A stretch of 64,000 bases of DNA, from assembly GCA_038887515.1 (NCBI GenBank), contig JAWAKK010000001.1, forward strand, positions 390,205-454,204, written 5' to 3'. The stretch is from Candidatus Nezhaarchaeales archaeon. GTDB lineage: Archaea; Thermoproteota; Methanomethylicia; Nezhaarchaeales; WYZ-LMO8. Below, in pieces: positions 9,842 to 24,699 of the stretch. The first letter of the stretch is position 1; each line of letters opens with the position of its first letter. The translations under genes were made by a program, and so were the position numbers. A model generated the notes under the pieces. It had not been told where the DNA came from. It made no database searches and was given only the letters and a program-made list of their open reading frames with translations.

Positions 9842-10182
9842 AACGTGTCCCTAAATATCCCGCATATCGTGACCACTACATCTATTCTAGGTCTACCGAG
9901 CTCTGAGAGAGGTATTACTTCGAGGTCCCTAATGTACAGGCCTCTCCAAACAGGTTTTACACCTAGAAGGTGGAATATTGCTGCTAGCGTCTCTCCACCG
10001 GTCTTCATGGTCTCAAAGGCCCATAAAACAACGCCAACGGCCTTCGGGTACCTCCCATTCTTCTGGTAGAACCTCTTAAGATATTCTTCAGCTATCTTCT
10101 TACCTCTCTCCTCCTTCTTGCAATCTTCACTACGCCTACTATCAAAAATGGTATCGCAATGGCGAACCAAACTGCTACCCAT
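9715..10182 (-). pseudogene. cobN: Internal fragment of cobaltochelatase CobN / Mg-chelatase H family
   Basis: 'YPKAVGVVLWAFETMKTGGETLAAIFHLLGVKPVW...LEVIPLSELGRPRIDVVVTICGIFRDTF' matches a conserved CobN block. The ORF is 155 aa, whereas CobN is over 1000 aa. It overlaps the apgM remnant. Confidence 0.55.
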
Positions 10183-10220
10183 AATGGAGAAAGAAAACCA
10201 TCCATTATATGCATAGGAAT

Positions 10221-10237
10221 CACTAGCTGGATAGATT
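10221..10237. promoter_or_regulatory. Perfect 7-bp inverted repeat CTGGATA-gat-TATCCAG in the intergenic region upstream of cbiC
   Basis: Read directly from the sequence. Candidate operator or hairpin. Confidence 0.3.
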
Positions 10238-10445
10238 ATCCAGCCAACTCATATAAAACTTACCATCAACGTAATTACTGTTGGGAAGAGATGTCTTAAA
10301 GCAAGATGTTGGCTTCTCTGTTTATGAAGTCGTGACCGCACTTAGCCTATATTAAGGTTAGATGGTCAACTTACTTAGCCATTTAAGGACGAGGTCTAGA
10401 GTGAAGTTTAAATTGTTGGTTAGCTTCACCTATCCTTAAGGCTGG

Positions 10446-11129
10446 ATGGGTTATCCAACCATGGATCAACATCACGATCCTGATGACATTCAAGCTTCGA
10501 GGGCACTTCTATCCATGAGCATCAATAAGGTTAGAGAGCTTATTGGAGATTACTTAAGAAGTTTGCCAGCAAGCCATGCGAGAATCGTTGAGCGAGTCGT
10601 GCATGCTACTGCGGATCCAGAGTTTGCTAAACTAGTAGTTATAAGTAATGGAGCTGTCGAAAGTGGGATCAAAGCCATAAGGGCTGGCGCAAAGGTCGTG
10701 ACCGACGTTAAGATGGTTAAAGCCGGGTTGAGAGAAGTAGGGCTTAGAAGGTTTGGAGGAAGAGTTGAGTGCTACGTGGATGATGAAAGAGCCATTAAGG
10801 TAGCTCGAGAAGAAGGAATAACTAGAACTGCAGCGGCAATGCGAGTCGCCGTCGAGATGGGGTTAAACGGAGCGATAGTCCTGATCGGGATATCTCCCAG
10901 TGCAACACTTGAGCTGGTTTCAGCTATTAAGAGAGGAGAAGCAAAGCCAGCTCTGATAGTTGCAACACCAGTTGGTTTCATAGGGGCTAGAGAGTCTAAA
11001 GAGGAGGTCATGAAGCTACCAATCCCCTACATAGTCGTAACAGGTTCAAAGGGTGGTAGCCCCGTAGCTGTAGCAATATTCAATGCGCTATTAACGTTAG
11101 CAGAAGAGGGTATGGAGGGCTTCACTTGA
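10446..11129 (+). CDS. cbiC: Cobalt-precorrin-8 methylmutase CbiC
   Basis: 'HATADPEFAKLVVISNGAVESGIKAIRAGAKVVTDVKMVKAGL' matches the CbiC/CobH core. Its size is about 210-230 aa. Confidence 0.75.
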   Translation: MGYPTMDQHHDPDDIQASRALLSMSINKVRELIGDYLRSLPASHARIVERVVHATADPEFAKLVVISNGAVESGIKAIRAGAKVVTDVKMVKAGLREVGLRRFGGRVECYVDDERAIKVAREEGITRTAAAMRVAVEMGLNGAIVLIGISPSATLELVSAIKRGEAKPALIVATPVGFIGARESKEEVMKLPIPYIVVTGSKGGSPVAVAIFNALLTLAEEGMEGFT

Positions 11130-12887: not shown

Positions 12888-13467
12888 AACACCTGGAATA
12901 CCGGATGAGCTCTTCATAACTAGCGATAAGGTTCCTGGACCAACCAAAGAAGAGGTAAGAGTTGTGACCATATCGAAGGCAAGGCTTAAGGAGGGATGTC
13001 GCGTTGCTGATGTTGGTTGTGGTGTTGGAAGCATAACTGTCGAAGCTGCATTAATTGTTGGCTCTACGGGGAAAGTATACGCTATTGATAAAGATGAAGA
13101 GGCTATTAGAATCACGAAGCTGAACGTGGCTAAATTTGGCGTTCAAGATCGCGTTCAGGTAATACTTGGGAAAGCTTCTAAGGTTCTTGAGCTAATCCCG
13201 GAGGTCGATAGCATAATAATAGGAGGTGGAAGGCCCTTATCCAAGGTCCTTGAAGCTGCTGTTAAGAGACTGAAGTTTGGTGGACGCATCGTAATCAATG
13301 CGGTCACTGTTGAAACGGCGAGTAGAGCTATCAAGATGCTCAAGAAGATGAAGTTCGGTGAGCTGGAAGTAGTTAACGTATCTATCGCTAAAGGCAAGCT
13401 TACCAACGCGGGAACTATCATGCTGGCTAGGAACCCTGTTTTCGTAATATCTGCGTCAAAATCTTGA
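12874..13467 (+). CDS. cbiT: Cobalt-precorrin-6B (C15)-methyltransferase (decarboxylating) CbiT (GTG start)
   Basis: 'VADVGCGVGSITVEAA...VYAIDKDEEAI' is a class I SAM-binding motif. Position after cbiE matches the cbiET pairing. Confidence 0.75.
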   Translation: MWSYKTPGIPDELFITSDKVPGPTKEEVRVVTISKARLKEGCRVADVGCGVGSITVEAALIVGSTGKVYAIDKDEEAIRITKLNVAKFGVQDRVQVILGKASKVLELIPEVDSIIIGGGRPLSKVLEAAVKRLKFGGRIVINAVTVETASRAIKMLKKMKFGELEVVNVSIAKGKLTNAGTIMLARNPVFVISASKS

Positions 13468-13477
13468 GGGAGCTATA

Positions 13478-13996
13478 TTGCTAGGCAAGTTATATGGTGT
13501 GGGTGTTGGTCCAGGCGACCCTGACTTACTGACTTTGAAGGCTGTAAAGGTTTTGGGTGATGTGGACGTAATATTCGCTCCAAAACCCAGCACTGACAAG
13601 CCTAGCTTAGCACTGACGATTGTTAAGCCAATGCTTAGAGACCATCAGGAAGTGGTAGAACTTGTCTACCCGATGACTAAGGAAAGAGAGGTCTTAGAAG
13701 CTTGTTGGGAAAAGAATGCTGACCTGATAATCTCAAAGCTCATGACAGGAAAGAACGCAGCCTTCATAACGTTAGGAGACCCCATGCTCTACAGCACCTT
13801 CATATATACTTGCAGGAAGATTGTAGCTAAAGCTCCTGACGTGGAGATAGAGATAGTCCCAGGAGTTACATCGATAACGGAATGTGCTGCAATCTCAAGG
13901 ACGTCCATAGCAGAAGGAGATGAAGTAGTGGTGATAATCCCTTCACTGAGTGATCGCGAAAAAATTAGAGGTCTAGCGAAGAAGCTACATCAATAA
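13478..13996 (+). CDS. cbiL: Cobalt-factor II C20-methyltransferase CbiL, C-terminally truncated (172 aa vs ~220-240 expected)
   Basis: 'MLGKLYGVGVGPGDPDLLTLKA' is the CbiL/CobI N-terminus. The protein ends shortly after '...VVVIIPSLSD' and lacks the last roughly 60 residues. Confidence 0.65.
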   Translation: MLGKLYGVGVGPGDPDLLTLKAVKVLGDVDVIFAPKPSTDKPSLALTIVKPMLRDHQEVVELVYPMTKEREVLEACWEKNADLIISKLMTGKNAAFITLGDPMLYSTFIYTCRKIVAKAPDVEIEIVPGVTSITECAAISRTSIAEGDEVVVIIPSLSDREKIRGLAKKLHQ

Positions 13997-16659: not shown

Positions 16660-17721
16660 TTAATTAATATCCTTCGATTTTCTTTGTATCATGTATTGAT
16701 ACTTTACTTCTCCATCCATTATATAGTACACTAAACATTCACCATCTTCGGCTTTTAGTATCGGCTTTGTTAAGACTTCCGCTATTTTTACGAGGTCCCC
16801 AAGACTCTTCACGTCTATTGTTGTCCACGTCTCGGGAGGTAATCTCGTTGCCTCAATTATCAAGTCTTTATATTCTTCAGCCACTTTTTCGGTCTTTGCT
16901 ATTTCGCTAGACTCTTTCTTGGCCTTCCTTGAACCCTTAAAGTATAGGGCTGTCGATACGACTAATCCTGAAATCATAACTGCGGTCACAGCATAAGACG
17001 CATCTTTCTGTAGTTCGACGTCGGGGTACCCTACTTCAATAGTTTCCCTAATTTCTTTATTTTCAGTCTGGTTTAGGCCCTCCAGCGATATGTAGCTACC
17101 CTTATCGGTTGTCGATTTAAAAACTACGGTCAGCTGAGGGGTAAACTTTTCCCCTACTTCTCTCCCAGCAAGAACGGCTTCTATGTTTATGTTTGGCATC
17201 ACGTAGATACTATAGGAGGAGGAGTACATTCCCAACTCTTTGTCTATCGCATGAGCGATATTCCTTATTGCTGGACAGTTTATTTCAAGTGTAAAGTTTA
17301 GCGACCCCCTAAAATTCAATAACTCCACAAGTTCTGTCTCCTGCAGGTACTTTACCCATCTACCTGGCGATTCTATTTTTGCAGCCACACTCTCCATTGT
17401 TACGTTAAGCTTCTCTGGACTTGGGTTTGAAGCGAATACGTACGTAAATGTTACGTTAATCCTGTTCGTTAGAGATGTATACAAGATCCCTTCGTCGGGT
17501 CTCAATACGGTCTTATTATAAATGACGTTCGGCTTCAACTCTGCTACGCAATCGTAAAATGCTTTATGCATATATGAAGCTAAGGTTACCGTTCGCCTCT
17601 CAAACGTTGGCCTCTGTTGTACATAGTAAAGGTTTACGAGTGAGAAAACAGTTAGCGCAATGAAAGAAATGACCAATATTTTCTTAATTAACTCCTTGTC
17701 TTTCTTCATGCCTTTCATCAC
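16660..17721 (-). CDS. Hypothetical membrane protein (N-terminal TM, large extracytoplasmic domain, second TM near C-terminus)
   Basis: Long ORF with no recognisable motif. Confidence 0.4.
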   Translation of the reverse strand: MMKGMKKDKELIKKILVISFIALTVFSLVNLYYVQQRPTFERRTVTLASYMHKAFYDCVAELKPNVIYNKTVLRPDEGILYTSLTNRINVTFTYVFASNPSPEKLNVTMESVAAKIESPGRWVKYLQETELVELLNFRGSLNFTLEINCPAIRNIAHAIDKELGMYSSSYSIYVMPNINIEAVLAGREVGEKFTPQLTVVFKSTTDKGSYISLEGLNQTENKEIRETIEVGYPDVELQKDASYAVTAVMISGLVVSTALYFKGSRKAKKESSEIAKTEKVAEEYKDLIIEATRLPPETWTTIDVKSLGDLVKIAEVLTKPILKAEDGECLVYYIMDGEVKYQYMIQRKSKDIN

Positions 17722-18010: not shown

Positions 18011-19786
18011 ATGAGGCCCCCAAGCGTTAGGCTTGTGGGCGCTTTATTGATCGCATTACCTCTAATCATAGCTATTTCTTCTATGTGCATGATGGCTTCT
18101 CAGCCCACCGTCCAATTATTGCTAAGGTTTAGGCCGGGCGTTCCCGAGGACTTTAAGAAGGAGTTCCTAGAGTCTCACGGTCTACAGACGGTAGACTACA
18201 TAAAGCAAATAGATGTTTTCGTTGTTTCAGCTCCAGTACAAAGACTTCCATCAATTAAATCGGCATTGGCTGAGAGCCCTATAATAGACTTTGTTGAAGT
18301 AGACTCGATTATAGCCTACTCGCAGGTGCCCAACGATCCATATTATCCAGTCCAATGGTATTTGGCTAAAATTAATTGTCCTAGCGCTTGGGATATTTCG
18401 ACTGGAAGAAGCAACATTATAATAGCAGTGATCGACAGCGGGGTTGACCCCACACACCCTGATTTAGCCGGTAAACTCATTCAAGGATGGAACTTCTACG
18501 ATAACAATGACGATACCTCCGACGCCTTTGGACACGGTACAAGGGTTGCAGGTATAATAGCTGCAGTAACTAATAACAATGTAGGCATAGCCGGCGTGAC
18601 CTGGAACTGTCTGATACTACCTATTAAGGTCACAAACCCAAGCGGTTACACTACCACCTCGCTATTAAGCAAGGGTCTAGTTTACGCCGCCGATAGAGGT
18701 GCCAAGGTCGCAGTGATAAGTTATCAAATATTTGGTGGCTCCTCTATTTCGAGTGCGGCTAAGTACTTTGTGGACAAGGGAGGAGTAGTTGTAGCAGCAG
18801 CAGGCAACACCGGGAAGTACGAGAGCTATAACGATAATCCATACATAATCTCCGTCAGCGCTACGACTAGTAGCGATACGTTAGCAAGTTACTCGTCCTA
18901 TGGACCGTACGTGGACCTTTCAGCTCCAGGTTCAGGCATATACACTACGACTAGAGGTGGCGGTTACGGTGCAGTTTCAGGAACATCGTTCTCGGCTCCC
19001 ATTGTTGCTGGGGTTGCTGCATTGATGCTCTCAATTAATCCCTCTCTAACACCATCGCAAATCGAGCAAGTACTAGAGTCCACCGCCGTCGACTTAGGTG
19101 CGCCCGGCTACGACGTCTATTATGGTTGGGGAAGAATCGACGCTTATGCTGCCCTCAAAGCGGCTTTAGAGATGACGAGCAGAAGTACCAGCCCTCCAAC
19201 AATAATAGACACTACCCCACCAAGTGTTAGGATAGTCTATCCAGCTAGTGGAGAGGTTGTTTCAGGCTCGGTGACAGTCAAGGTTGAAGCGAGCGACAAC
19301 ATCGGAGTAGCTAAGGTAGAGCTATACAAGAATGGCAATTTACTCGCTGTAGATTATGATGCGCCCTACGAGTTCTACTGGGATAGTGCGGCAGATCCAA
19401 ACGGAGTGTACCTCTTAGTAGCTAGAGCCTACGACTCTTACGGTAACGTTGGTGAGTCGAACGCAATCGCGGTCAACGTCGTTAACAGTCTTGTAAGCAA
19501 CCCTTCCGACACTAATCCTCCAACAGTTAAAATAGTTAAGCCCTTGAACAGACAGGTGGTGTCAAAAGCTGTAGATATAGTTGTTTCAGCATCGGACGAT
19601 TCAGGGATAGGGAGGATCGAGATTTACGTGAATGGCAACTTAATAGCTACAATTAATGCTGAACCGTACACCTATAATTGGAATACAAGGTCTGTCAAAA
19701 ATGGTTGGCATACTATAACTGCTAAAGTCTACGATATCTACGACAATTACGCCGAGACTTCGATAAGCGTTTACGTGTACAATTAA
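18011..19786 (+). CDS. Secreted subtilisin-like serine protease (S8) with N-terminal propeptide and two C-terminal ~90-aa Ig-like repeats
   Basis: Signal peptide is present. Catalytic motifs are 'VIDSGVDPTHPDL', 'HGTRVAGIIAA' and 'GTSFSAPIVAGVAALM'. The C-terminal repeats are 'PPSVRIVYPASGEVVSGSVTVKV...' and 'PPTVKIVKPLNRQVVSKAVDIVV...'. Confidence 0.85.
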   Translation: MRPPSVRLVGALLIALPLIIAISSMCMMASQPTVQLLLRFRPGVPEDFKKEFLESHGLQTVDYIKQIDVFVVSAPVQRLPSIKSALAESPIIDFVEVDSIIAYSQVPNDPYYPVQWYLAKINCPSAWDISTGRSNIIIAVIDSGVDPTHPDLAGKLIQGWNFYDNNDDTSDAFGHGTRVAGIIAAVTNNNVGIAGVTWNCLILPIKVTNPSGYTTTSLLSKGLVYAADRGAKVAVISYQIFGGSSISSAAKYFVDKGGVVVAAAGNTGKYESYNDNPYIISVSATTSSDTLASYSSYGPYVDLSAPGSGIYTTTRGGGYGAVSGTSFSAPIVAGVAALMLSINPSLTPSQIEQVLESTAVDLGAPGYDVYYGWGRIDAYAALKAALEMTSRSTSPPTIIDTTPPSVRIVYPASGEVVSGSVTVKVEASDNIGVAKVELYKNGNLLAVDYDAPYEFYWDSAADPNGVYLLVARAYDSYGNVGESNAIAVNVVNSLVSNPSDTNPPTVKIVKPLNRQVVSKAVDIVVSASDDSGIGRIEIYVNGNLIATINAEPYTYNWNTRSVKNGWHTITAKVYDIYDNYAETSISVYVYN

Positions 19787-19844: not shown

Positions 19845-20414
19845 TTAGGGCGCGCTGTATCGCAATGTTACATAAATTATCATGTAATCTCTCTCCTCTT
19901 GTCCGCATTCCATTCTAATCCACACGATTGCTTTCTCTCCTGGATTCAGAACCACCATTCCAAAGTGATTTAAACCGTCGAGCGGCGGATCGCCAACCTC
20001 ATATTCTCCACAGCCATCTCCACTATACGGACCATAAAAGTACGTTTGCACAGTATTGCCGTCATAGTCTGCGCCGTTTACCCATACCATAGGGCTCTCT
20101 AGAACTGAAGGCACAGTTCCATCGTTTCGCACTAGAAGCCCCACCCAGATGTACCATCCGCTCGACACGTTGGTGCATTCAATTATAAGCGTCTGTCCGC
20201 CACCTATCACGTTACTAACTATTGTCCCATCGTATCCCATTGAGCTGACTATCTTGCTTAAACAAATAGTCTGTCTAAACACTGCAGTTTCAACTCTTCC
20301 AACGACGTATAGGTTGTCCTGCAACAATGTGTGGGTCAGGCCGACTACAGCTAAAGCTACTATTGGGATTAGCGCCATCACGAACATTCTATTAAGAAAA
20401 CTGCTCCTCCTCAC
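19845..20414 (-). CDS. Small secreted protein, divergent paralog of the TasA-like subunits (TapA-like position)
   Basis: Signal anchor followed by 'HTLLQDNLYVVGRVETAVF'. This parallels 'YALWSTNLYVSGTINTGTV' of the downstream paralogs. Confidence 0.35.
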   Translation of the reverse strand: MRRSSFLNRMFVMALIPIVALAVVGLTHTLLQDNLYVVGRVETAVFRQTICLSKIVSSMGYDGTIVSNVIGGGQTLIIECTNVSSGWYIWVGLLVRNDGTVPSVLESPMVWVNGADYDGNTVQTYFYGPYSGDGCGEYEVGDPPLDGLNHFGMVVLNPGEKAIVWIRMECGQEERDYMIIYVTLRYSAP

Positions 20415-20423
20415 TTCACCTCT

Positions 20424-21752
20424 TCACCTCCTAACGATTTTTCTAGAGCCATTCACGTGCTTGTACGCGTATATTATGGATGCGTTAATAACAGCAGTTA
20501 ATAGTACGTATGCGATCAATGGGTTTTCAGTCAGATATACTGCAACGGTGCCAACCATGTTCTTTAAGAATATGCTGGCCCAGCCTATCTTCGGCACTGC
20601 GAAGACAAGCTTCCATAATTTTTGGCTAGGTATTACAACTATTGGTTCGTCGGGTACGTTGTTAGCATCACCCTTAGTCACTATTACTATTACGCCTCCA
20701 GACCTGCTTACTTCCACGACCCTATGTGCTATTGGGGAATCGATCCCGCTTCTCAAGTATTGTATTACATCGCCCACGTGAACCTTTTCTGCCGATGTTT
20801 GTACGGTTACGATTATGTCGCCTACATCAAGCATTGGCCTCATACTTCCACTTACGACTACGCTAGCTTGATACCCCAGTAGCCCACTCGTACCCCAGAC
20901 CATTGCTACCATAATCAAAGCCGCAACAAGACCTACCAGCTCTACGGACCTTGAAGCCTTACGCCCCCTCAATTTTATTTGCTTGATGTCCTTCTTGTTC
21001 ATGATTCCTACAGCGATTAACTTCATGGGCGAGAGAGCTTCATTTATCATTATCACTCCAATAGCAGGTGTAAGCGTAGTTATCAACGATTCTACCCCCC
21101 ACGGTGGTTTTGGTAGTATAGGTGCTAACCAATTGTATGCTTCTATGGTCCATACGTAGGTAATCGATGCTAGTGGCCCGCCTATTAGAGCTAGGTAAGT
21201 TGACAATAGACTCTGTGCGCCGGCCGGTAGTACTTTCGAAGCTAAAAACTTTACTGAATCAGCTAAGCTATTCTGGGCAATAAAGCTGAAAGCTGAAAGT
21301 TTAAGGAACATAAAAAATACTGTTACCAGGATTAGTCCAGTATACTTTCTACTTCTGGGTACAGACTTGACTACGTATGCTCTTGCAGTCTCCTGAGCTA
21401 AGATCGGAGCTGTAAAGTATACTATGTTTGTAATCATTCCTATTAGCGTGAACGAGTAGGGACTTCTCCCGAACTCCGTAAACAATGCTACAAGGTTTAA
21501 GCTTACGATTTGCAGTAAAGCCGTTAAAAACGCTATTATAATTACGAATCTATGGGTCTCCAACTTAAACCGTCTTAGACCTCCAATAAGATAAAGCGAG
21601 ATTAAAAACGATAACGTCCACAATAGTGATGGAATCACGTAAGCCAATAATCCAGTAAAATTAAAGGAGTTCAAAACGACATATATACCGATAATTAAGG
21701 TTAGCGTTGAGACCTGCCCTTTGTATTGGGCAAACGTGTCTTTCAAGCGCAT
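20424..21752 (-). CDS. Fusion protein: N-terminal ~270-aa polytopic membrane domain (about 7 TM, unknown function) fused to a type I signal peptidase (S26B, SipW/archaeal type) catalytic domain
   Basis: SPase boxes are 'VVSGSMRPMLDVGDII' (catalytic Ser), 'IAHRVV' (His) and 'TKGDANNVPDEP' (box D). A TM anchor precedes the boxes and a C-terminal TM follows them. Confidence 0.6.
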   Translation of the reverse strand: MRLKDTFAQYKGQVSTLTLIIGIYVVLNSFNFTGLLAYVIPSLLWTLSFLISLYLIGGLRRFKLETHRFVIIIAFLTALLQIVSLNLVALFTEFGRSPYSFTLIGMITNIVYFTAPILAQETARAYVVKSVPRSRKYTGLILVTVFFMFLKLSAFSFIAQNSLADSVKFLASKVLPAGAQSLLSTYLALIGGPLASITYVWTIEAYNWLAPILPKPPWGVESLITTLTPAIGVIMINEALSPMKLIAVGIMNKKDIKQIKLRGRKASRSVELVGLVAALIMVAMVWGTSGLLGYQASVVVSGSMRPMLDVGDIIVTVQTSAEKVHVGDVIQYLRSGIDSPIAHRVVEVSRSGGVIVIVTKGDANNVPDEPIVVIPSQKLWKLVFAVPKIGWASIFLKNMVGTVAVYLTENPLIAYVLLTAVINASIIYAYKHVNGSRKIVRR

Positions 21753-21839
21753 CCATGGCGACCTCCAACATTATCGTTAGCATAAAAAAAGAGGGGTTTA
21801 TTCGGACTCTAACTTAACGTAAGGCTTAGTTAGCTGTCT

Positions 21840-22883
21840 CTACGGTGTGTACGTGTACTTTACTTCAACTACCGCTAAATCGTGGTAAGTGTATGCGCCC
21901 CATCCGTCGGTTGCCTGGAAGCGTACCTTTAAGTCGTTAATTTCAGCAACTGTATCTACACCGAGCGCCTTTAAGTCTATAACCTCGGTACGATCTTGTC
22001 CAGGCGCAGGTAGGGGCGACAAGTTAATCGTACCCATCAACGTCGGCCCAACGTACACTCTTATCCTTGCATTATCTACGTGTGATGGTCTGTTCCACTC
22101 GAAGTACAATACAACACTGTCTATCGATGCTCCAGCAGGTAGGGTTACCTTTTCAAACCATATATCTAGGTACTCAAACTCACTATAGCACTCACTCCAC
22201 GTACTCTTAGTGCGATACCTATCATCATCACTTTGTTTAAGCCTGTTTAGATCTTGGCTCTTTAGCTGGTACCCAAAGTCTGTAGTGTCACAGCCTTTAT
22301 TCGGATTCAAACGCACTGTCTCCGTTATCGCTTGAGCTGGCGGTACATACTCATTCCACTGTATCAATTCCATCTCTAGAGCAAACGGGTAGGATGCATC
22401 TTGGTCGGCACACTGCTCAACATGCACCTTAATTACGACGGTTATTTCATCTCCTTGATGTAATTGTCTCCCTACAGGGGCATCGTGCGTAATCTGTAAC
22501 CAGACAGGTCCATCATTTGCTCCATATCCGCTCGACGGTGTCCAACCAATAGTGGTTATAACGGTTTCATTAACTATTGCTGGGACCGTTCCAGTATATC
22601 TATACACGGCAGTTATTGTTGCGTTGTAGCATGGATACGTATTGTCTACGACTACAATAAGTGTATCTGTCCCCAAGCCGTCGAATATAACTCCTCCAAC
22701 ATCCTTATCGTAACCAGGATCTACACCTTCATCGTTAGATACCGCAGATACCCACATTCCTTCAACAGTACCAGTTTCAATAGTACCACTTACCAAGACG
22801 TTCGTGCTCCATAACGTGTACACTAAACCTATCAATAACATGACAGCTACGAGGGCTGAAAGTACATACGCAAGTTTTTTCAC
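21840..22883 (-). CDS. TasA/camelysin-like secreted fibre subunit with ~165-aa C-terminal extension (347 aa)
   Basis: Signal plus 'YTLWSTNVLVSGTIETGTV', which is SipW-cognate-like. The core ends in 'ELIQWNEY', compared with TasA '...EATQWNG'. Confidence 0.5.
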   Translation of the reverse strand: MKKLAYVLSALVAVMLLIGLVYTLWSTNVLVSGTIETGTVEGMWVSAVSNDEGVDPGYDKDVGGVIFDGLGTDTLIVVVDNTYPCYNATITAVYRYTGTVPAIVNETVITTIGWTPSSGYGANDGPVWLQITHDAPVGRQLHQGDEITVVIKVHVEQCADQDASYPFALEMELIQWNEYVPPAQAITETVRLNPNKGCDTTDFGYQLKSQDLNRLKQSDDDRYRTKSTWSECYSEFEYLDIWFEKVTLPAGASIDSVVLYFEWNRPSHVDNARIRVYVGPTLMGTINLSPLPAPGQDRTEVIDLKALGVDTVAEINDLKVRFQATDGWGAYTYHDLAVVEVKYTYTP

Positions 22884-22909
22884 AGCAGATACCCCGCTAA
22901 TTGCTTAAA

Positions 22910-23419
22910 CTACTCTGGTGCTTGGAATTCGTTCCACTGTACGAGCATTATATCAATCGTGAACGTGTATGTCGCGCCCTGTAGAGCATCATTTGTTAAG
23001 TGGACAGTTAACAGACAGTTGACCTCTTGCCCTGGCTCTATTTGGTCTCCCACAGCTATCCCGCTAACCACGACCCATACAGACGCGTTACCGTTAATAG
23101 CTATGCTTTGAACTTTGACAGGAATTGTCCCAGTATTCTTTACCTTAAACTCTTGGAAGTAGTCTATGCTCGGATAGGCGTTTGTAATCGTAACCACCAA
23201 CGTATTTCCATCAACAAGAGCAGATATTTCGCTAACGTCTTTTCCAGGAACATCATCATCTCCATCGTAGCTGGCGCCTGCTATTATTTCTGCAGAGACC
23301 GTTCCAGTATTTATAGTACCGCTTACGTAGAGGTTCGTGGACCACAACGCGTAGCTTACTCCTAAGGCCAGCATAACTACGAGTAGTGATGCAACAATAC
23401 CGACAATCTTGGTCTTCAC
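22910..23419 (-). CDS. TasA/camelysin-like secreted fibre subunit (169 aa)
   Basis: Signal plus 'YALWSTNLYVSGTINTGTV'. The C-terminus is 'IMLVQWNEFQAPE'. Confidence 0.55.
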   Translation of the reverse strand: MKTKIVGIVASLLVVMLALGVSYALWSTNLYVSGTINTGTVSAEIIAGASYDGDDDVPGKDVSEISALVDGNTLVVTITNAYPSIDYFQEFKVKNTGTIPVKVQSIAINGNASVWVVVSGIAVGDQIEPGQEVNCLLTVHLTNDALQGATYTFTIDIMLVQWNEFQAPE

Positions 23420-23736: not shown

Positions 23737-23973
23737 TTACTCTTCTACTAGCAGTTTAAGAAAAAGTCTTCCCTTATCGGTTGTTCGATAAATTTTTGGG
23801 CCGCTCGGTACTTCAACGATTTCTAGCAACTCTTTGCCGACGAGGTACTGGAGGTACGCTTGAAAGCGTTTAAAGTTTAAATTAGATTTATAGATGATAT
23901 GGGTTATTTTCTCGCCCTTAAGGCATAACCTAAGTATCTCCATAATTATATTAACTTGGTTTCTACGCATCAC
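23737..23973 (-). CDS. Small winged-helix DNA-binding protein (COG3432-like)
   Basis: 78 aa: 'IIMEILRLCLKGEKITHIIYKSNLNFKRFQAYLQYLVGKELLE'. It has the same pattern as the ORF at 24376..24699. Confidence 0.5.
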   Translation of the reverse strand: MMRRNQVNIIMEILRLCLKGEKITHIIYKSNLNFKRFQAYLQYLVGKELLEIVEVPSGPKIYRTTDKGRLFLKLLVEE

Positions 23974-24164: not shown

Positions 24165-24410
24165 ATGTGTAGGCATTTTAAAAGAGGCGGCTCGATTGAG
24201 AGGATGAAGAAAAACATTAGGCGTTTTCTTAGAGCACTGGAAGACGGGGAGTTTCACAACCTCGAGGACCTATCTAGGAAATTGAATATGCCGCTTGAAT
24301 TATTGGTAGCCTTCTCAAACTTCTTGAAGAAATGGGACTTCGCGGATTTCGATGAGGAGGGTCGAAGGGTAAGACTTAAGCCTGACTTTCTTGAACTCCC
24401 CCGAGACTAA
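24165..24410 (+). CDS. Hypothetical small protein (81 aa)
   Basis: ORF only. It is basic and lies between two wHTH genes. Confidence 0.3.
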   Translation: MCRHFKRGGSIERMKKNIRRFLRALEDGEFHNLEDLSRKLNMPLELLVAFSNFLKKWDFADFDEEGRRVRLKPDFLELPRD

Positions 24411-24699
24411 GGTGTCTCTCGAGCTTCTTAAGAGCTTGGAAAAGTTTTTCTTCAGCTTCTTTGAGTTTCATAAATTCTTCAACGAAGTCCAGACCATTCT
24501 TGGTAATCGCTATCTTTGAAGAACTACCATTTAAGGAAACGAGCTTCCTAGAAAGAAGGAAGGATAAGTACTTATTAGTCCTATTTAAGTTCAAGTTGAC
24601 CTTGCGCATAATCATGGTCTTACTTTGTTTTCCTTCCTTAAGTAGAAGGAGGATGTCTGATAGGATGTCCAAGCCACTCCTTCTCTTCCTTTTAATCAT
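24376..24699 (-). CDS. Small winged-helix DNA-binding protein (COG3432-like), paralog of 23737..23973
   Basis: 'ILSDILLLLKEGKQSKTMIMRKVNLNLNRTNKYLSFLLSRKLV'. Confidence 0.5.
   Translation of the reverse strand: MIKRKRRSGLDILSDILLLLKEGKQSKTMIMRKVNLNLNRTNKYLSFLLSRKLVSLNGSSSKIAITKNGLDFVEEFMKLKEAEEKLFQALKKLERHLSLGGVQESQA

Follow-up and report, generated by a model that had tools for sequence, protein, structure and literature searches.

Organization of the locus

The window analysed here, 64,000 nucleotides in length, comes from an uncultured hot-spring archaeon of the Candidatus Nezhaarchaeales that is known from a metagenome-assembled genome (MAG) only. Four minus-strand genes, all in the same orientation, occupy positions 19845-23419 exactly in the open reading frame listing, with a short oligo-T feature between the second and third:

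22910-23419, minus strand: gene A, 169 aa with a GTG start, candidate major AbpX-like fibre subunit
21840-22883, minus strand: gene B, 347 aa, AbpX paralog with an extra C-terminal domain
21784-21790, minus strand: T7 run, about 50 nt past the B stop codon and before C, read from the sequence
20424-21752, minus strand: gene C, 442 aa, polytopic fusion with a signal peptidase I domain
19845-20414, minus strand: gene D, 189 aa, divergent AbpX-like protein, putative minor subunit

The order of two subunits (A and B), a peptidase (C) and a divergent small subunit (D) is that given in the original prediction, as is the archaeal host: B and D have 100% identity to proteins of a Candidatus Nezhaarchaeales MAG. 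A Shine-Dalgarno-like GGAGGTG lies immediately 5' of the GTG start of A, and D starts 9 nt past the C stop codon, which is itself overlapped by a GGAGGTGA motif. The T7 run could serve as an oligo-T terminator or attenuator of the archaeal type.

Three paralogous secreted proteins

A basic n-region and, by hydropathy, a single hydrophobic segment stand at the start of each of A, B and D, and the claim that they are secreted paralogs is well founded. BLASTP gave E 1e-28 and 34% identity for A against B (residues 1-182), E 2e-6 for A against D and E 3e-5 for B against D, whilst hhalign of the D family (six orthologs) against the A family (41 homologs), with signal peptides removed from both, gave a probability of 97% and E 1e-10 over 126 columns. 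An A-family HMM matched the N-terminal half of B with E 4e-41, and A, B and D were its only matches among the 305 open frames of the whole window (six-frame, stop-to-stop, at least 50 residues). Judged by these alignments, the paralogy is well beyond chance. All of the motifs originally quoted are present: SYALWSTNLYVSGTINTGTV in A, VYTLWSTNVLVSGTIETGTV in B and THTLLQDNLYVVGRVETAVF in D. A ends in LVQWNEFQAPE and the first domain of B closes with LIQWNEY; the QWNE motif is absent from D, the hallmark of whose family is YFYGPY.

An identity as archaeal type IV pilins, with processing by a prepilin peptidase and assembly via the N-terminal hydrophobic helix, is very unlikely for these proteins. 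None has a [KR]-[GA] class III cleavage motif ahead of the hydrophobic stretch, and the match to the UpsA model (28.6 bits; cutoff 130) leaves out the N-terminus. Neither the locus nor the syntenic loci contain genes for a pilus ATPase, a platform or a prepilin peptidase; the locus encodes a signal peptidase I instead. The homolog AbpX, moreover, loses its hydrophobic segment, the mature protein beginning beside a Trp.

Relationship of A to AbpX

AbpX of Pyrodictium abyssi (PDB 9SJ2) was the top PDB sequence match for A as a single sequence (E 6e-5), and the A-family profile (41 sequences, from a total of 53 homologs) reached it with E 1.8e-17, in an alignment starting at the donor-strand Trp. 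AbpX is a member of the TasA superfamily, and its fibre is built by donor-strand complementation (PMC12518558; bioRxiv 10.64898/2026.01.04.697558). The prediction of a TasA-superfamily fibre locus with three distinct subunits thus gains support from this profile match. The N-terminal features of A are as follows:

23348-23419, minus strand: signal peptide of A, residues 1-24 (MKTK, hydrophobic core, SYA), Sec/SPase I-type
23306-23347, minus strand: predicted N-terminal donor strand of A, L25-T38, LWSTNLYVSGTINT

A24 and L25 flank the predicted cleavage site, where S at -3 and A at -1 are consistent with the signal peptidase I rule. A or G is held at -1 across the A-family alignment, and the mature N-terminus of AbpX in 9SJ2 likewise lies one residue ahead of the aligned Trp. 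Residues W2, L6, L8, A10 and I12 of the AbpX donor strand align without gaps with W26, L30, V32, G34 and I36 of A, and the Trp is invariant in 41/41 A homologs. Invariance in the A family extends to Y82-P83, G97, P100, Q126, H140 and W162-N163. A and AbpX thus have in common a Sec/SPase I signal, an amphipathic donor strand whose second residue is Trp and whose positions 6, 8, 10 and 12 are hydrophobic, the core motifs ...NaYP... and ...N(T/V)GTIP..., an adjacent TIGR02228 signal peptidase I gene, and an acidic mature protein with a pI of about 4. For mature A, predicted to be 145 aa, the computed pI is 4.05, within a mature-protein range of 4.05-4.35; similar acidic values are reported for AbpX homologs (bioRxiv 10.64898/2026.01.04.697558). 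They differ in that A ends in VQWNEF, HMMER leaving its C-terminal part unaligned to AbpX.

A second difference may affect assembly. In AbpX, assembly is driven by calcium-site residues. The calcium ligands E4, D18, D46, D48 and E52 map in A to T, S, D70, a gap and N or no counterpart, so that four of the five are missing and only D46 (D70 in A) is kept; donor-strand position 4, acidic in AbpX, is the T. Since A lacks most of these ligands, its assembly trigger may differ from the calcium-driven one of AbpX.

The link to TasA and camelysin proposed originally is seen repeatedly in profile searches, but weakly. Weak matches to Peptidase_M73 (best E 7e-5) and to the SipW-cognate model TIGR04088 were each given by 9 of the 41 A homologs, and to TIGR04090 BsaA by 7/41, but A itself falls below the Pfam Peptidase_M73 cutoff. 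An hhalign comparison of A1 with a TasA sequence gave a probability of 77% and E 2e-5, spanning the signal peptide, the donor strand and the first core strands and stopping short of the C-terminal QWNE region. A PDB search with a 42-residue C-terminal query found nothing, leaving the likening of QWNE to the TasA C-terminus without statistical support.

The matches to TIGR04088, and the JGI automatic name of the two homologs P0046 and P0049 ('predicted ribosomally synthesized peptide with SipW-like signal peptide'), would suit peptide precursors that are made ribosomally and carry SipW-like leaders. Such an identity seems scarcely credible for A, B and D, which form folded beta domains of 145-324 aa and share homology with a solved fibre subunit, in a locus with no modification enzymes; the JGI name mirrors the signal-peptide model alone.

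Structure of B and D

B is divided into two parts:

22338-22883, minus strand: N-terminal half of B, residues 1-182, with signal peptide, donor strand LWSTNVLVSGTIET and AbpX-like core
21840-22337, minus strand: C-terminal domain of B, residues 183-347 and stop codon, a beta domain of about 160 aa

The AF2 model of B (mean pLDDT 89.5) has an all-beta core at 42-175, preceded by an unstructured donor segment at 24-41, and, with high pLDDT, another beta domain at 186-345. That of D (pLDDT 79.6) is also all-beta, and in both monomer models the donor segment is left unpaired. Structure prediction, put forward originally as a check, gave all-beta models of B and D with a free donor segment; fold searches returned generic beta-sandwich matches only. 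The donor-strand Trp is lost in D: its orthologs have W at donor-strand position 2, whereas D of the present genome has L, no 'Trp clamp', and T at the cleavage-site -1.

The C-terminal domain of B has no Pfam or NCBIfam match. Domains of this type are carried by at least 150 representative proteins, multidomain surface proteins in which the partners are TasA-type N-termini or Peptidase_M73 cores, VWA, SpaA_2, PKD, Big, dockerin and Flg_new. Foldseek with the whole of B, both domains serving as the query, gave carbohydrate-binding modules and BcsB. From these associations and the model, the domain is probably an adhesin or glycan-binding module.

Such features raise the question of whether A, B and D polymerise at all, or are secreted surface or glycan-binding proteins, or camelysin-like proteases, in a secretion cassette sharing a SipW-type signal. 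The fold-search results, mostly carbohydrate-binding modules and Ig-like domains, the occurrence of the extra domain of B in many multidomain adhesins and enzymes, and the Pfam title of the TasA family ('camelysin metallo-endopeptidase') all lean this way. We nevertheless regard it as unlikely. A motif scan of A, B and D found no HExxH or other metalloprotease motif. The strictly conserved amphipathic strand with its invariant Trp is the neighbour-docking element in the AbpX cryo-EM structure, and AF2 leaves this N-terminal strand unpaired in the monomer. Several paralogs with a dedicated peptidase and DUF5305 form an architecture that is tied to fibres in the AbpX, TasA and Tafi systems.

The signal peptidase

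The type I signal peptidase predicted to lie among the subunits is the product of gene C, which has two parts:

20958-21752, minus strand: N-terminal polytopic membrane domain of C, residues 1-265, about 7-8 hydrophobic segments (hydropathy)
20424-20957, minus strand: catalytic domain of C, residues 266-442, with membrane anchor, signal peptidase I and C-terminal transmembrane segment

Residues ~278-407 match the archaeal signal peptidase I model TIGR02228 with 80.8 bits (cutoff 51.85), and also match human SEC11A/C with E 3e-12, the SGSM (S303), HR (H343) and GD (D362) motifs aligning with SEC11C. By these alignments C is a Ser-His-Asp signal peptidase I of the ER/archaeal, SipW-like type, although its score against the SipW equivalog model (67.9 bits) fails the cutoff of 190. 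The N-terminal domain has no relative in Pfam or the PDB; it is kept in five orthologs, with Q81, E121, R124, Y126, PILP211-214 and W218 invariant. Whole C has about 9-10 hydrophobic segments, and by this count fits the AbpX-associated signal peptidase I described as a 'ten TM helix' protein (bioRxiv 10.64898/2026.01.04.697558). In 5/5 loci of the same type the peptidase gene is followed directly by a D-like gene.

Flanking genes and conservation of the module

A to D do fill the interval first proposed, but the module reaches beyond it in both directions:

16660-17721, minus strand: DUF5305 protein, 353 aa with two hydrophobic segments (about 10-35 and 241-261), putative accessory subunit of the signal peptidase
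18011-19786, plus strand: S8 subtilase, secreted, carrying two Ig-like Big_7 domains; gene convergent with D
23737-23973, minus strand: winged-helix gene, HTH_45/Sso10a family, adjoining A upstream, candidate regulator
24376-24699, minus strand: second HTH_45/Sso10a-like winged-helix gene (Pfam HTH_45 E 3e-17)

The order A-B-C-D-S8-DUF5305 is kept in two further MAGs, the genomic context of one being different, and the core order A-(subunit)-peptidase-D-like recurs in L006 and L008. The DUF5305 protein (Pfam DUF5305 E 2e-21, above cutoff) accompanies the module in L002, L003 and L008; DUF5305 is described as a signal peptidase I accessory in abpX and Tafi loci (bioRxiv 10.64898/2026.01.04.697558; PMC12337348). 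The winged-helix protein next to A matches Pfam HTH_45 (E 9e-19) and NCBIfam Sso10a_fam (73 bits). HTH_45 genes flank the homologous loci L002, L007 and L008 too, in L002 likewise as a pair.

The subtilase (Pfam Peptidase_S8 E 2e-53, Big_7 E 4e-38) has intact D142/H175/S326 motifs and a hydrophobic segment at its N-terminus. Its gene is equally placed in L002 and in L003, where the flanks differ. The position between D and DUF5305 is conserved in the clade of this locus only, the gene being missing from the more distant abpX-like loci examined. Such conservation suggests that the subtilase may have a role in the fibre system.

A proposed model for fibre assembly

We consider it very probable that the locus is of the abpX type and belongs to the AbpX clade within the TasA superfamily. 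Sec would export A, B and D, and C would remove their signal peptides one residue before the conserved Trp, probably assisted by the DUF5305 membrane protein. The freed amphipathic strand could then enter the open groove in the beta-sandwich of the neighbouring subunit by donor-strand complementation, to give thin extracellular fibres that bundle and may form a biofilm or cell-cell matrix. A is likely to be the major subunit. B, with its adhesin- or CBM-like C-terminal domain, may be a 'tip' or decorated subunit, whilst D would be a low-abundance minor subunit that could act as initiator, terminator or anchor.

Comparison with known systems

By sequence similarity, the closest characterised relative is AbpX (PDB 9SJ2, 9RHP; PMC12518558; bioRxiv 10.64898/2026.01.04.697558), the best solved-structure match for A, rather than AbpA or TasA itself. 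The P. abyssi locus is minimal, consisting of abpX and a peptidase gene, whereas in the Nezhaarchaeales locus three subunits are accompanied by DUF5305, an S8 protease and winged-helix genes. Multi-gene archaeal abpX loci are known, for example, from Zestosphaera tikiterensis, Methanosuratincola, Ignisphaera and Desulfurococcus (Fig. 5B and Table S3 of bioRxiv 10.64898/2026.01.04.697558). As described in that preprint, a major AbpX is accompanied by an AbpX-like minor subunit and by a tip protein whose additional fold is lineage-specific; a polytopic signal peptidase I, a DUF5305 accessory and, occasionally, transcription factors are encoded as well (bioRxiv 10.64898/2026.01.04.697558). The present locus holds this full inventory, compared by gene description rather than by protein sequence. 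Because the architecture was described in the January 2026 preprint, it is not new: the locus is a further example of a known AbpX/TasA-type biofilm-fibre cluster, not a new kind of system, and adds one more to the archaeal clusters described in 2025-2026. Nezhaarchaeales are not among the lineages listed in the preprint, and its text mentions no subtilase.

The homology to the Bacillus subtilis TasA system is at the superfamily level. The proposal that the locus mirrors tapA-sipW-tasA holds by position, a dedicated Ser-His type signal peptidase gene likewise lying between genes for secreted proteins. It does not hold for the components: no TapA homolog was detected, B and D being TasA-like paralogs, and C, besides missing the SipW cutoff, adds a polytopic domain of ~265 aa that SipW lacks. 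Both systems have a SipW-cognate style N-terminus, with an aromatic residue at mature position 2 and an ...SGT.. motif. TasA is a secreted fibre subunit that polymerises by donor-strand exchange, as is proposed for the Nezhaarchaeales subunits. As far as the cited papers state, the B. subtilis operon has no DUF5305 partner.

The 2022 report of Pyrobaculum 'bundling pili', mentioned in the original prediction, is PMC9245690. AbpA of Pyrobaculum calidifontis forms an archaeal, TasA-related, donor-strand-complemented bundling fibre and belongs to a separate, more divergent clade; PDB sequence searches with A and the A-family profile gave no AbpA chain among their matches. The AbpA operon has a TapA-like AbpB and no dedicated signal peptidase (PMC9245690), whereas here the peptidase C is encoded. 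The Tafi pili of haloarchaea (TafA/E, the TafD signal peptidase and the DUF5305 protein TafG; PMC12337348) have in common with the present locus the pairing of signal peptidase and DUF5305 and, by the roles proposed here, strand donation, a tip protein, a regulator and both major and minor pilins. They are set apart by description, since many Tafi pilins use Tat and form a separate sequence cluster inside the superfamily (PMC12337348; bioRxiv 10.64898/2026.01.04.697558).

Gene arrangement of the locus

The original prediction placed three co-oriented genes for secreted paralogues, together with their own signal peptidase, at 19845-23419. This observation is confirmed: in the ORF listing the interval is covered exactly by four co-oriented minus-strand ORFs, here called A to D.

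22910-23419, minus strand: A, AbpX-like secreted protein, 169 aa
21840-22883, minus strand: B, AbpX-like secreted protein, 347 aa
20424-21752, minus strand: C, signal peptidase, 442 aa
19845-20414, minus strand: D, AbpX-like secreted protein, 189 aa

The genes are separated by 26 nt (A-B), 87 nt (B-C) and 9 nt (C-D), and GGAGGT Shine-Dalgarno-like motifs lie upstream of A, C and D. B and D match QW701_02215 and QW701_02205, respectively, with 100% identity; both are hypothetical proteins from the MAG of a Candidatus Nezhaarchaeales archaeon. By hydropathy, a short basic stretch opens each of A, B and D and is followed by a single hydrophobic segment. Every one of the motifs originally noted is present in these proteins. 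No tRNA genes, Rfam families at gathering score or tandem repeats were found across the 64-kb window.

A run of seven T residues (21784-21790, minus strand) lies some 50 nt past the B stop codon and ahead of the Shine-Dalgarno motif of C. This T7 run could be an oligo-T terminator or attenuator of the archaeal kind, setting a highly expressed A-B pair apart from C-D.

The secreted proteins belong to the AbpX family

The best PDB match of A is AbpX (9SJ2), a TasA-superfamily fibre subunit of Pyrodictium abyssi (phmmer, E 6.2e-5), with the alignment starting at the mature N-terminus (AbpX, WSETLSLSATISTG; A, WSTNLYVSGTINTG). A profile of the A family (41 homologues) matches AbpX residues 2-139 with E 1.8e-17, and the TasA chains 5OF1 and 8AUR in the PDB reach only E ~0.5 with this profile. 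The PDB sequence search is decisive for placing A in the AbpX family, an assignment that rests on sequence profiles. The fibre interpretation is supported, with the amendment that the nearest family is AbpX and not AbpA or TasA proper.

The expected similarity to TasA/camelysin and SipW-cognate signal profiles is fainter. A scores 15.7 bits against Peptidase_M73 (E 0.014), below the gathering threshold of 22.5 bits, and B and D have no match in Pfam or NCBIfam, Peptidase_M73 included; against PDB sequences B and D alone give chance-level matches only. Weak matches do appear among the 41 A homologues, nine of which match Peptidase_M73 at E<=0.1 (best E 7e-5), nine TIGR04088 (cognate_SipW) and seven TIGR04090 (BsaA). 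The pattern argues for a relationship at the superfamily level only. When the A profile was aligned by hhalign with a provisional sequence of B. subtilis TasA, the probability was 77% (E 2e-5), and the aligned part comprised the signal peptide, the donor strand and the first strands of the core. The proposed likeness between QWNE and the QWNG of TasA yielded nothing in the PDB with a 42-residue C-terminal query.

Judged by their sequences, A, B and D are paralogues. A aligns with B residues 1-182 at 34% identity (E 1e-28), and D matches A and B with E 2e-6 and 3e-5, respectively. With signal peptides removed, hhalign joins the D family (D and five orthologues, including three from related loci and the database protein P0061) to the A family across 126 columns, which reach from the donor strand as far as the penultimate strand (probability 97%, E 1e-10). 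An HMM of the A family run against the six-frame translation of the window matches the A, B and D ORFs and nothing further. B and D, for which database models are silent, are in this way accounted for as probable AbpX paralogues.

Two other readings of the secreted proteins are rejected. One is that they are type IV pilins: the match of A to UpsA scores 28.6 bits against a cutoff of 130 and is confined to the beta domain. No class III signal-peptide motif is visible in the sequences, and neither this locus nor the syntenic loci contain a pilus assembly ATPase or platform gene. The other reading, that A, B and D are RiPP precursors, derives from an automatic name that rests on a signal-peptide model.

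Donor strand and calcium site

AbpX belongs to the TasA superfamily and, as seen by cryo-EM, polymerises by N-terminal donor-strand complementation, with W2, L6, L8, A10 and I12 buried in the groove of the neighbouring subunit and three Ca2+ ions bound at the interface (PMC12518558; bioRxiv 10.64898/2026.01.04.697558). The donor strand is retained in A, B and D. Mature A and B would start L-W-S-T-N-(L/V), and the Trp is invariant in 41/41 homologues; cleavage of their Sec/type I signal is predicted by alignment with the N-terminus of mature AbpX. D has Leu at mature position 2, where its five orthologues have Trp, and Thr at position -1 of the predicted cleavage site. Its orthologues have a YFYGPY insertion in common and lack QWNE.

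Could the proteins instead be non-polymerising secreted proteins, or proteases of the camelysin type? This reading is rejected: the HExxH motif is absent from A, B and D, and the invariant donor strand argues against it.

The predicted structures are compatible with a strand that is free in the monomer. The AF2 model of B (mean pLDDT 89.5) has a signal helix, a beta core (residues 42-175) and a further beta domain (186-345), with residues 24-41, the donor strand, unstructured; that of D (pLDDT 79.6) likewise combines a signal helix with a beta core and leaves the donor segment unstructured. The mature proteins are acidic, with 11-14% Asp plus Glu. Their pI is 4.05 for A, 4.35 for B and 4.26 for D, in line with the low value (about 4) typical of the AbpX family.

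The calcium site is less well kept. AbpX uses E4, D18, D46, D48, E52 and E142 as ligands, and the first five were mapped onto A. In this mapping, which is alignment-dependent, E4 corresponds to T28, D18 to S42, D46 to D70, D48 to a gap and E52 to N72 or to no counterpart. Only one of the five positions is therefore acidic in A, which departs from AbpX in this feature, and the calcium switch may not operate in the Nezhaarchaeales-type clade. Position 4 of the donor strand varies among the 41 A homologues (Lys in 19, Glu in 9, Thr in 6); D has Asp there and its orthologues keep Glu or Asp. Since calcium coordination is frequent but not universal among AbpX homologues (bioRxiv 10.64898/2026.01.04.697558), loss of the ligands is better regarded as a clade trait than as a strict criterion.

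The signal peptidase and its possible coupling to D

Against TIGR02228, the model for signal peptidase I of archaea, residues ~278-407 of C score 80.8 bits and so pass its cutoff of 51.85. The same protein fails that of the Bacillus SipW equivalog NF046067 (67.9 bits against 190). C also matches human SEC11A/C (E 3e-12) with the SGSM (Ser303), HR (His343) and GD (Asp362) motifs in register, which identifies it as the ER/archaeal Ser-His-Asp type. By these comparisons C is SipW-like in catalytic type and not a SipW equivalog. The proposed resemblance to tapA-sipW-tasA is one of gene position, not orthology.

Hydropathy gives C about 9-10 hydrophobic segments: 7-8 in an N-terminal polytopic domain of ~265 aa, and one TM segment C-terminal of the catalytic domain. 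This count agrees with the signal peptidases of about ten TM helices that are associated with AbpX (bioRxiv 10.64898/2026.01.04.697558). In five orthologues the N-terminal domain (residues 1-265; window 20958-21752, minus strand) has invariant Q81, E121, R124, Y126, PILP211-214 and W218; profile and Pfam searches found no relative of it in Pfam or the PDB.

At each of the five loci of this kind examined, a D-like gene lies directly 3' of the peptidase gene, with an overlap of 4-8 nt in three and a gap of 9-11 nt in two. Four of these genes are as follows.

Window, 19845-20414: D
L002, locus of a second Nezhaarchaeales MAG, 12979-13587: D-like gene
L006, more distant locus, 9925-10512: D-like gene
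L008, more distant locus, 10468-11058: D-like gene

The close or overlapping junction suggests that translation of the putative minor subunit is coupled to that of the peptidase.

The C-terminal domain of B

B has an added beta domain of ~160 aa (residues 183-347; window 21843-22337, minus strand) for which neither Pfam nor NCBIfam has a model. By exhaustive HMMER search it is present in at least 150 representative proteins. In two of these, P0062 and P0063, two copies separate a donor strand of TasA type from a bona fide Peptidase_M73 core, and in P0069 and P0081 the domain accompanies a TasA-type N-terminus, VWA and SpaA_2. Other carriers are adhesin-like proteins with PKD, Big, dockerin or Flg_new domains. 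The domain seems to represent an extracellular family, adhesin or CBM-like, that has yet to be described, and the company it keeps favours a putative role of B as an adhesin or 'tip' protein.

Neighbouring genes and comparison with described loci

The predicted extent of the locus holds for the four genes, which fill the interval, but not for its boundaries, since the module is larger. The following genes flank it.

16660-17721, minus strand: DUF5305 protein (PF17231, E 2e-21, 76.8 bits against a cutoff of 29)
18011-19786, plus strand: secreted S8 subtilase with two Big_7 domains, D142/H175/S326 intact
23737-23973: HTH_45/Sso10a-like gene
24376-24699: second HTH_45/Sso10a-like gene

The whole neighbourhood is common to the window and L002. 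In L003, from a MAG labelled Bathyarchaeia, the same A-B-C-D-S8-DUF5305 block has different flanks, which argues that the six genes travel together. The DUF5305 gene is syntenic in L002, L003 and L008, and its product has no solved relative detectable by sequence. L006 and L008 have A, an optional second subunit, a peptidase of 432-443 aa and, overlapping or abutting the peptidase gene, one for a D-like protein of ~195 aa; in L008 they are accompanied by DUF5305 and HTH_45 genes.

The S8 subtilase gene sits between D and the DUF5305 gene, and keeps this position in L002 and L003 despite the different flanks of the latter. It is absent from the more distant abpX-like loci examined; those of Aeropyrum and the Desulfurococcales differ in their accessory genes and lack S8.

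The archaeal abpX loci in Fig. 5B of bioRxiv 10.64898/2026.01.04.697558 have the same gene inventory as the window locus. The adjacent polytopic signal peptidase I (about 10 TM) corresponds to C, the DUF5305 accessory to the ORF at 16660-17721, and the minor subunit and tip protein would correspond to D, a divergent paralogue, and B, a paralogue with the additional ~160-aa domain. A pairing of DUF5305 with a signal peptidase is also known from the loci of Tafi, the haloarchaeal pili. The preprint makes no mention of a subtilase for abpX loci, and Nezhaarchaeales are absent from the lineages that it lists as examples. The locus type is thus one already described, and the window locus extends it to an uncultured lineage.

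A proposed model for fibre assembly and a possible variant

A, B and D are homologues of a donor-strand-complemented fibre subunit whose donor strand they keep, and the locus encodes a signal peptidase with its Ser-His-Asp catalytic residues intact, together with a DUF5305 partner. After Sec export, C, probably with DUF5305, would cleave one residue ahead of the Trp, and the freed strand would dock into the next subunit. A would form the body of the fibre and B supply an adhesive module, and D, encoded directly after the peptidase, may be a minor initiator, terminator or anchor. The T7 run past B may reduce expression of C-D relative to A-B. The fibre would serve in aggregation or biofilm formation.

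It is also conceivable, though we consider it unlikely, that the Nezhaarchaeales-type module is a functionally distinct AbpX variant, combining calcium-free assembly, a membrane platform and a role for the S8 protease. A, with four of the five mapped ligands gone, may not need the calcium switch of AbpX in order to polymerise. The conserved N-terminal domain of C, polytopic and with invariant E121 and R124, may form with D a membrane assembly or anchoring platform, which may link signal-peptide removal to donor-strand exchange. Finally, the subtilase embedded in the module may mature or remodel the fibre.

With the window locus, the recently defined AbpX/TasA-type matrix-fibre system is extended to Candidatus Nezhaarchaeota, an uncultured thermophilic lineage. 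No published surface-structure or biofilm information for this lineage was found in the literature, and the locus is therefore a concrete candidate for attachment or aggregation in these archaea. It provides natural variants for the proposed model of calcium-triggered assembly, in A without most of the ligands and D without the Trp clamp. It also draws attention to an extracellular domain that lacks annotation and recurs in combination with TasA-like modules. This adhesin-like domain, the S8 protease embedded in the module and the loss of calcium ligands are testable variations. The current picture of the family is unchanged; the value lies in annotation and test cases, not in a new system.

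More distant loci

The pattern scan with the close A alignment recovered a single species-representative genome, which is bacterial: in L001, from an Anaerolineae bacterium (Chloroflexota; DAOTYP010000079.1), the protein encoded at 10001-10453 is 37% identical to A. Such a match fits the report that AbpX occurs in both domains (bioRxiv 10.64898/2026.01.04.697558).

In Aeropyrum and the Desulfurococcales, the abpX-like loci include a gene for a protein of ~190-200 aa (L005, 11585-12160; L007, 9408-10016). This protein carries a signal and a donor strand of AbpX type (LWSEDLNI or LWYEKLHT); the domain that follows is unlike the AbpX core in sequence and is Cys/His-rich in L007. It could serve as a cap or tip that contributes a donor strand only.
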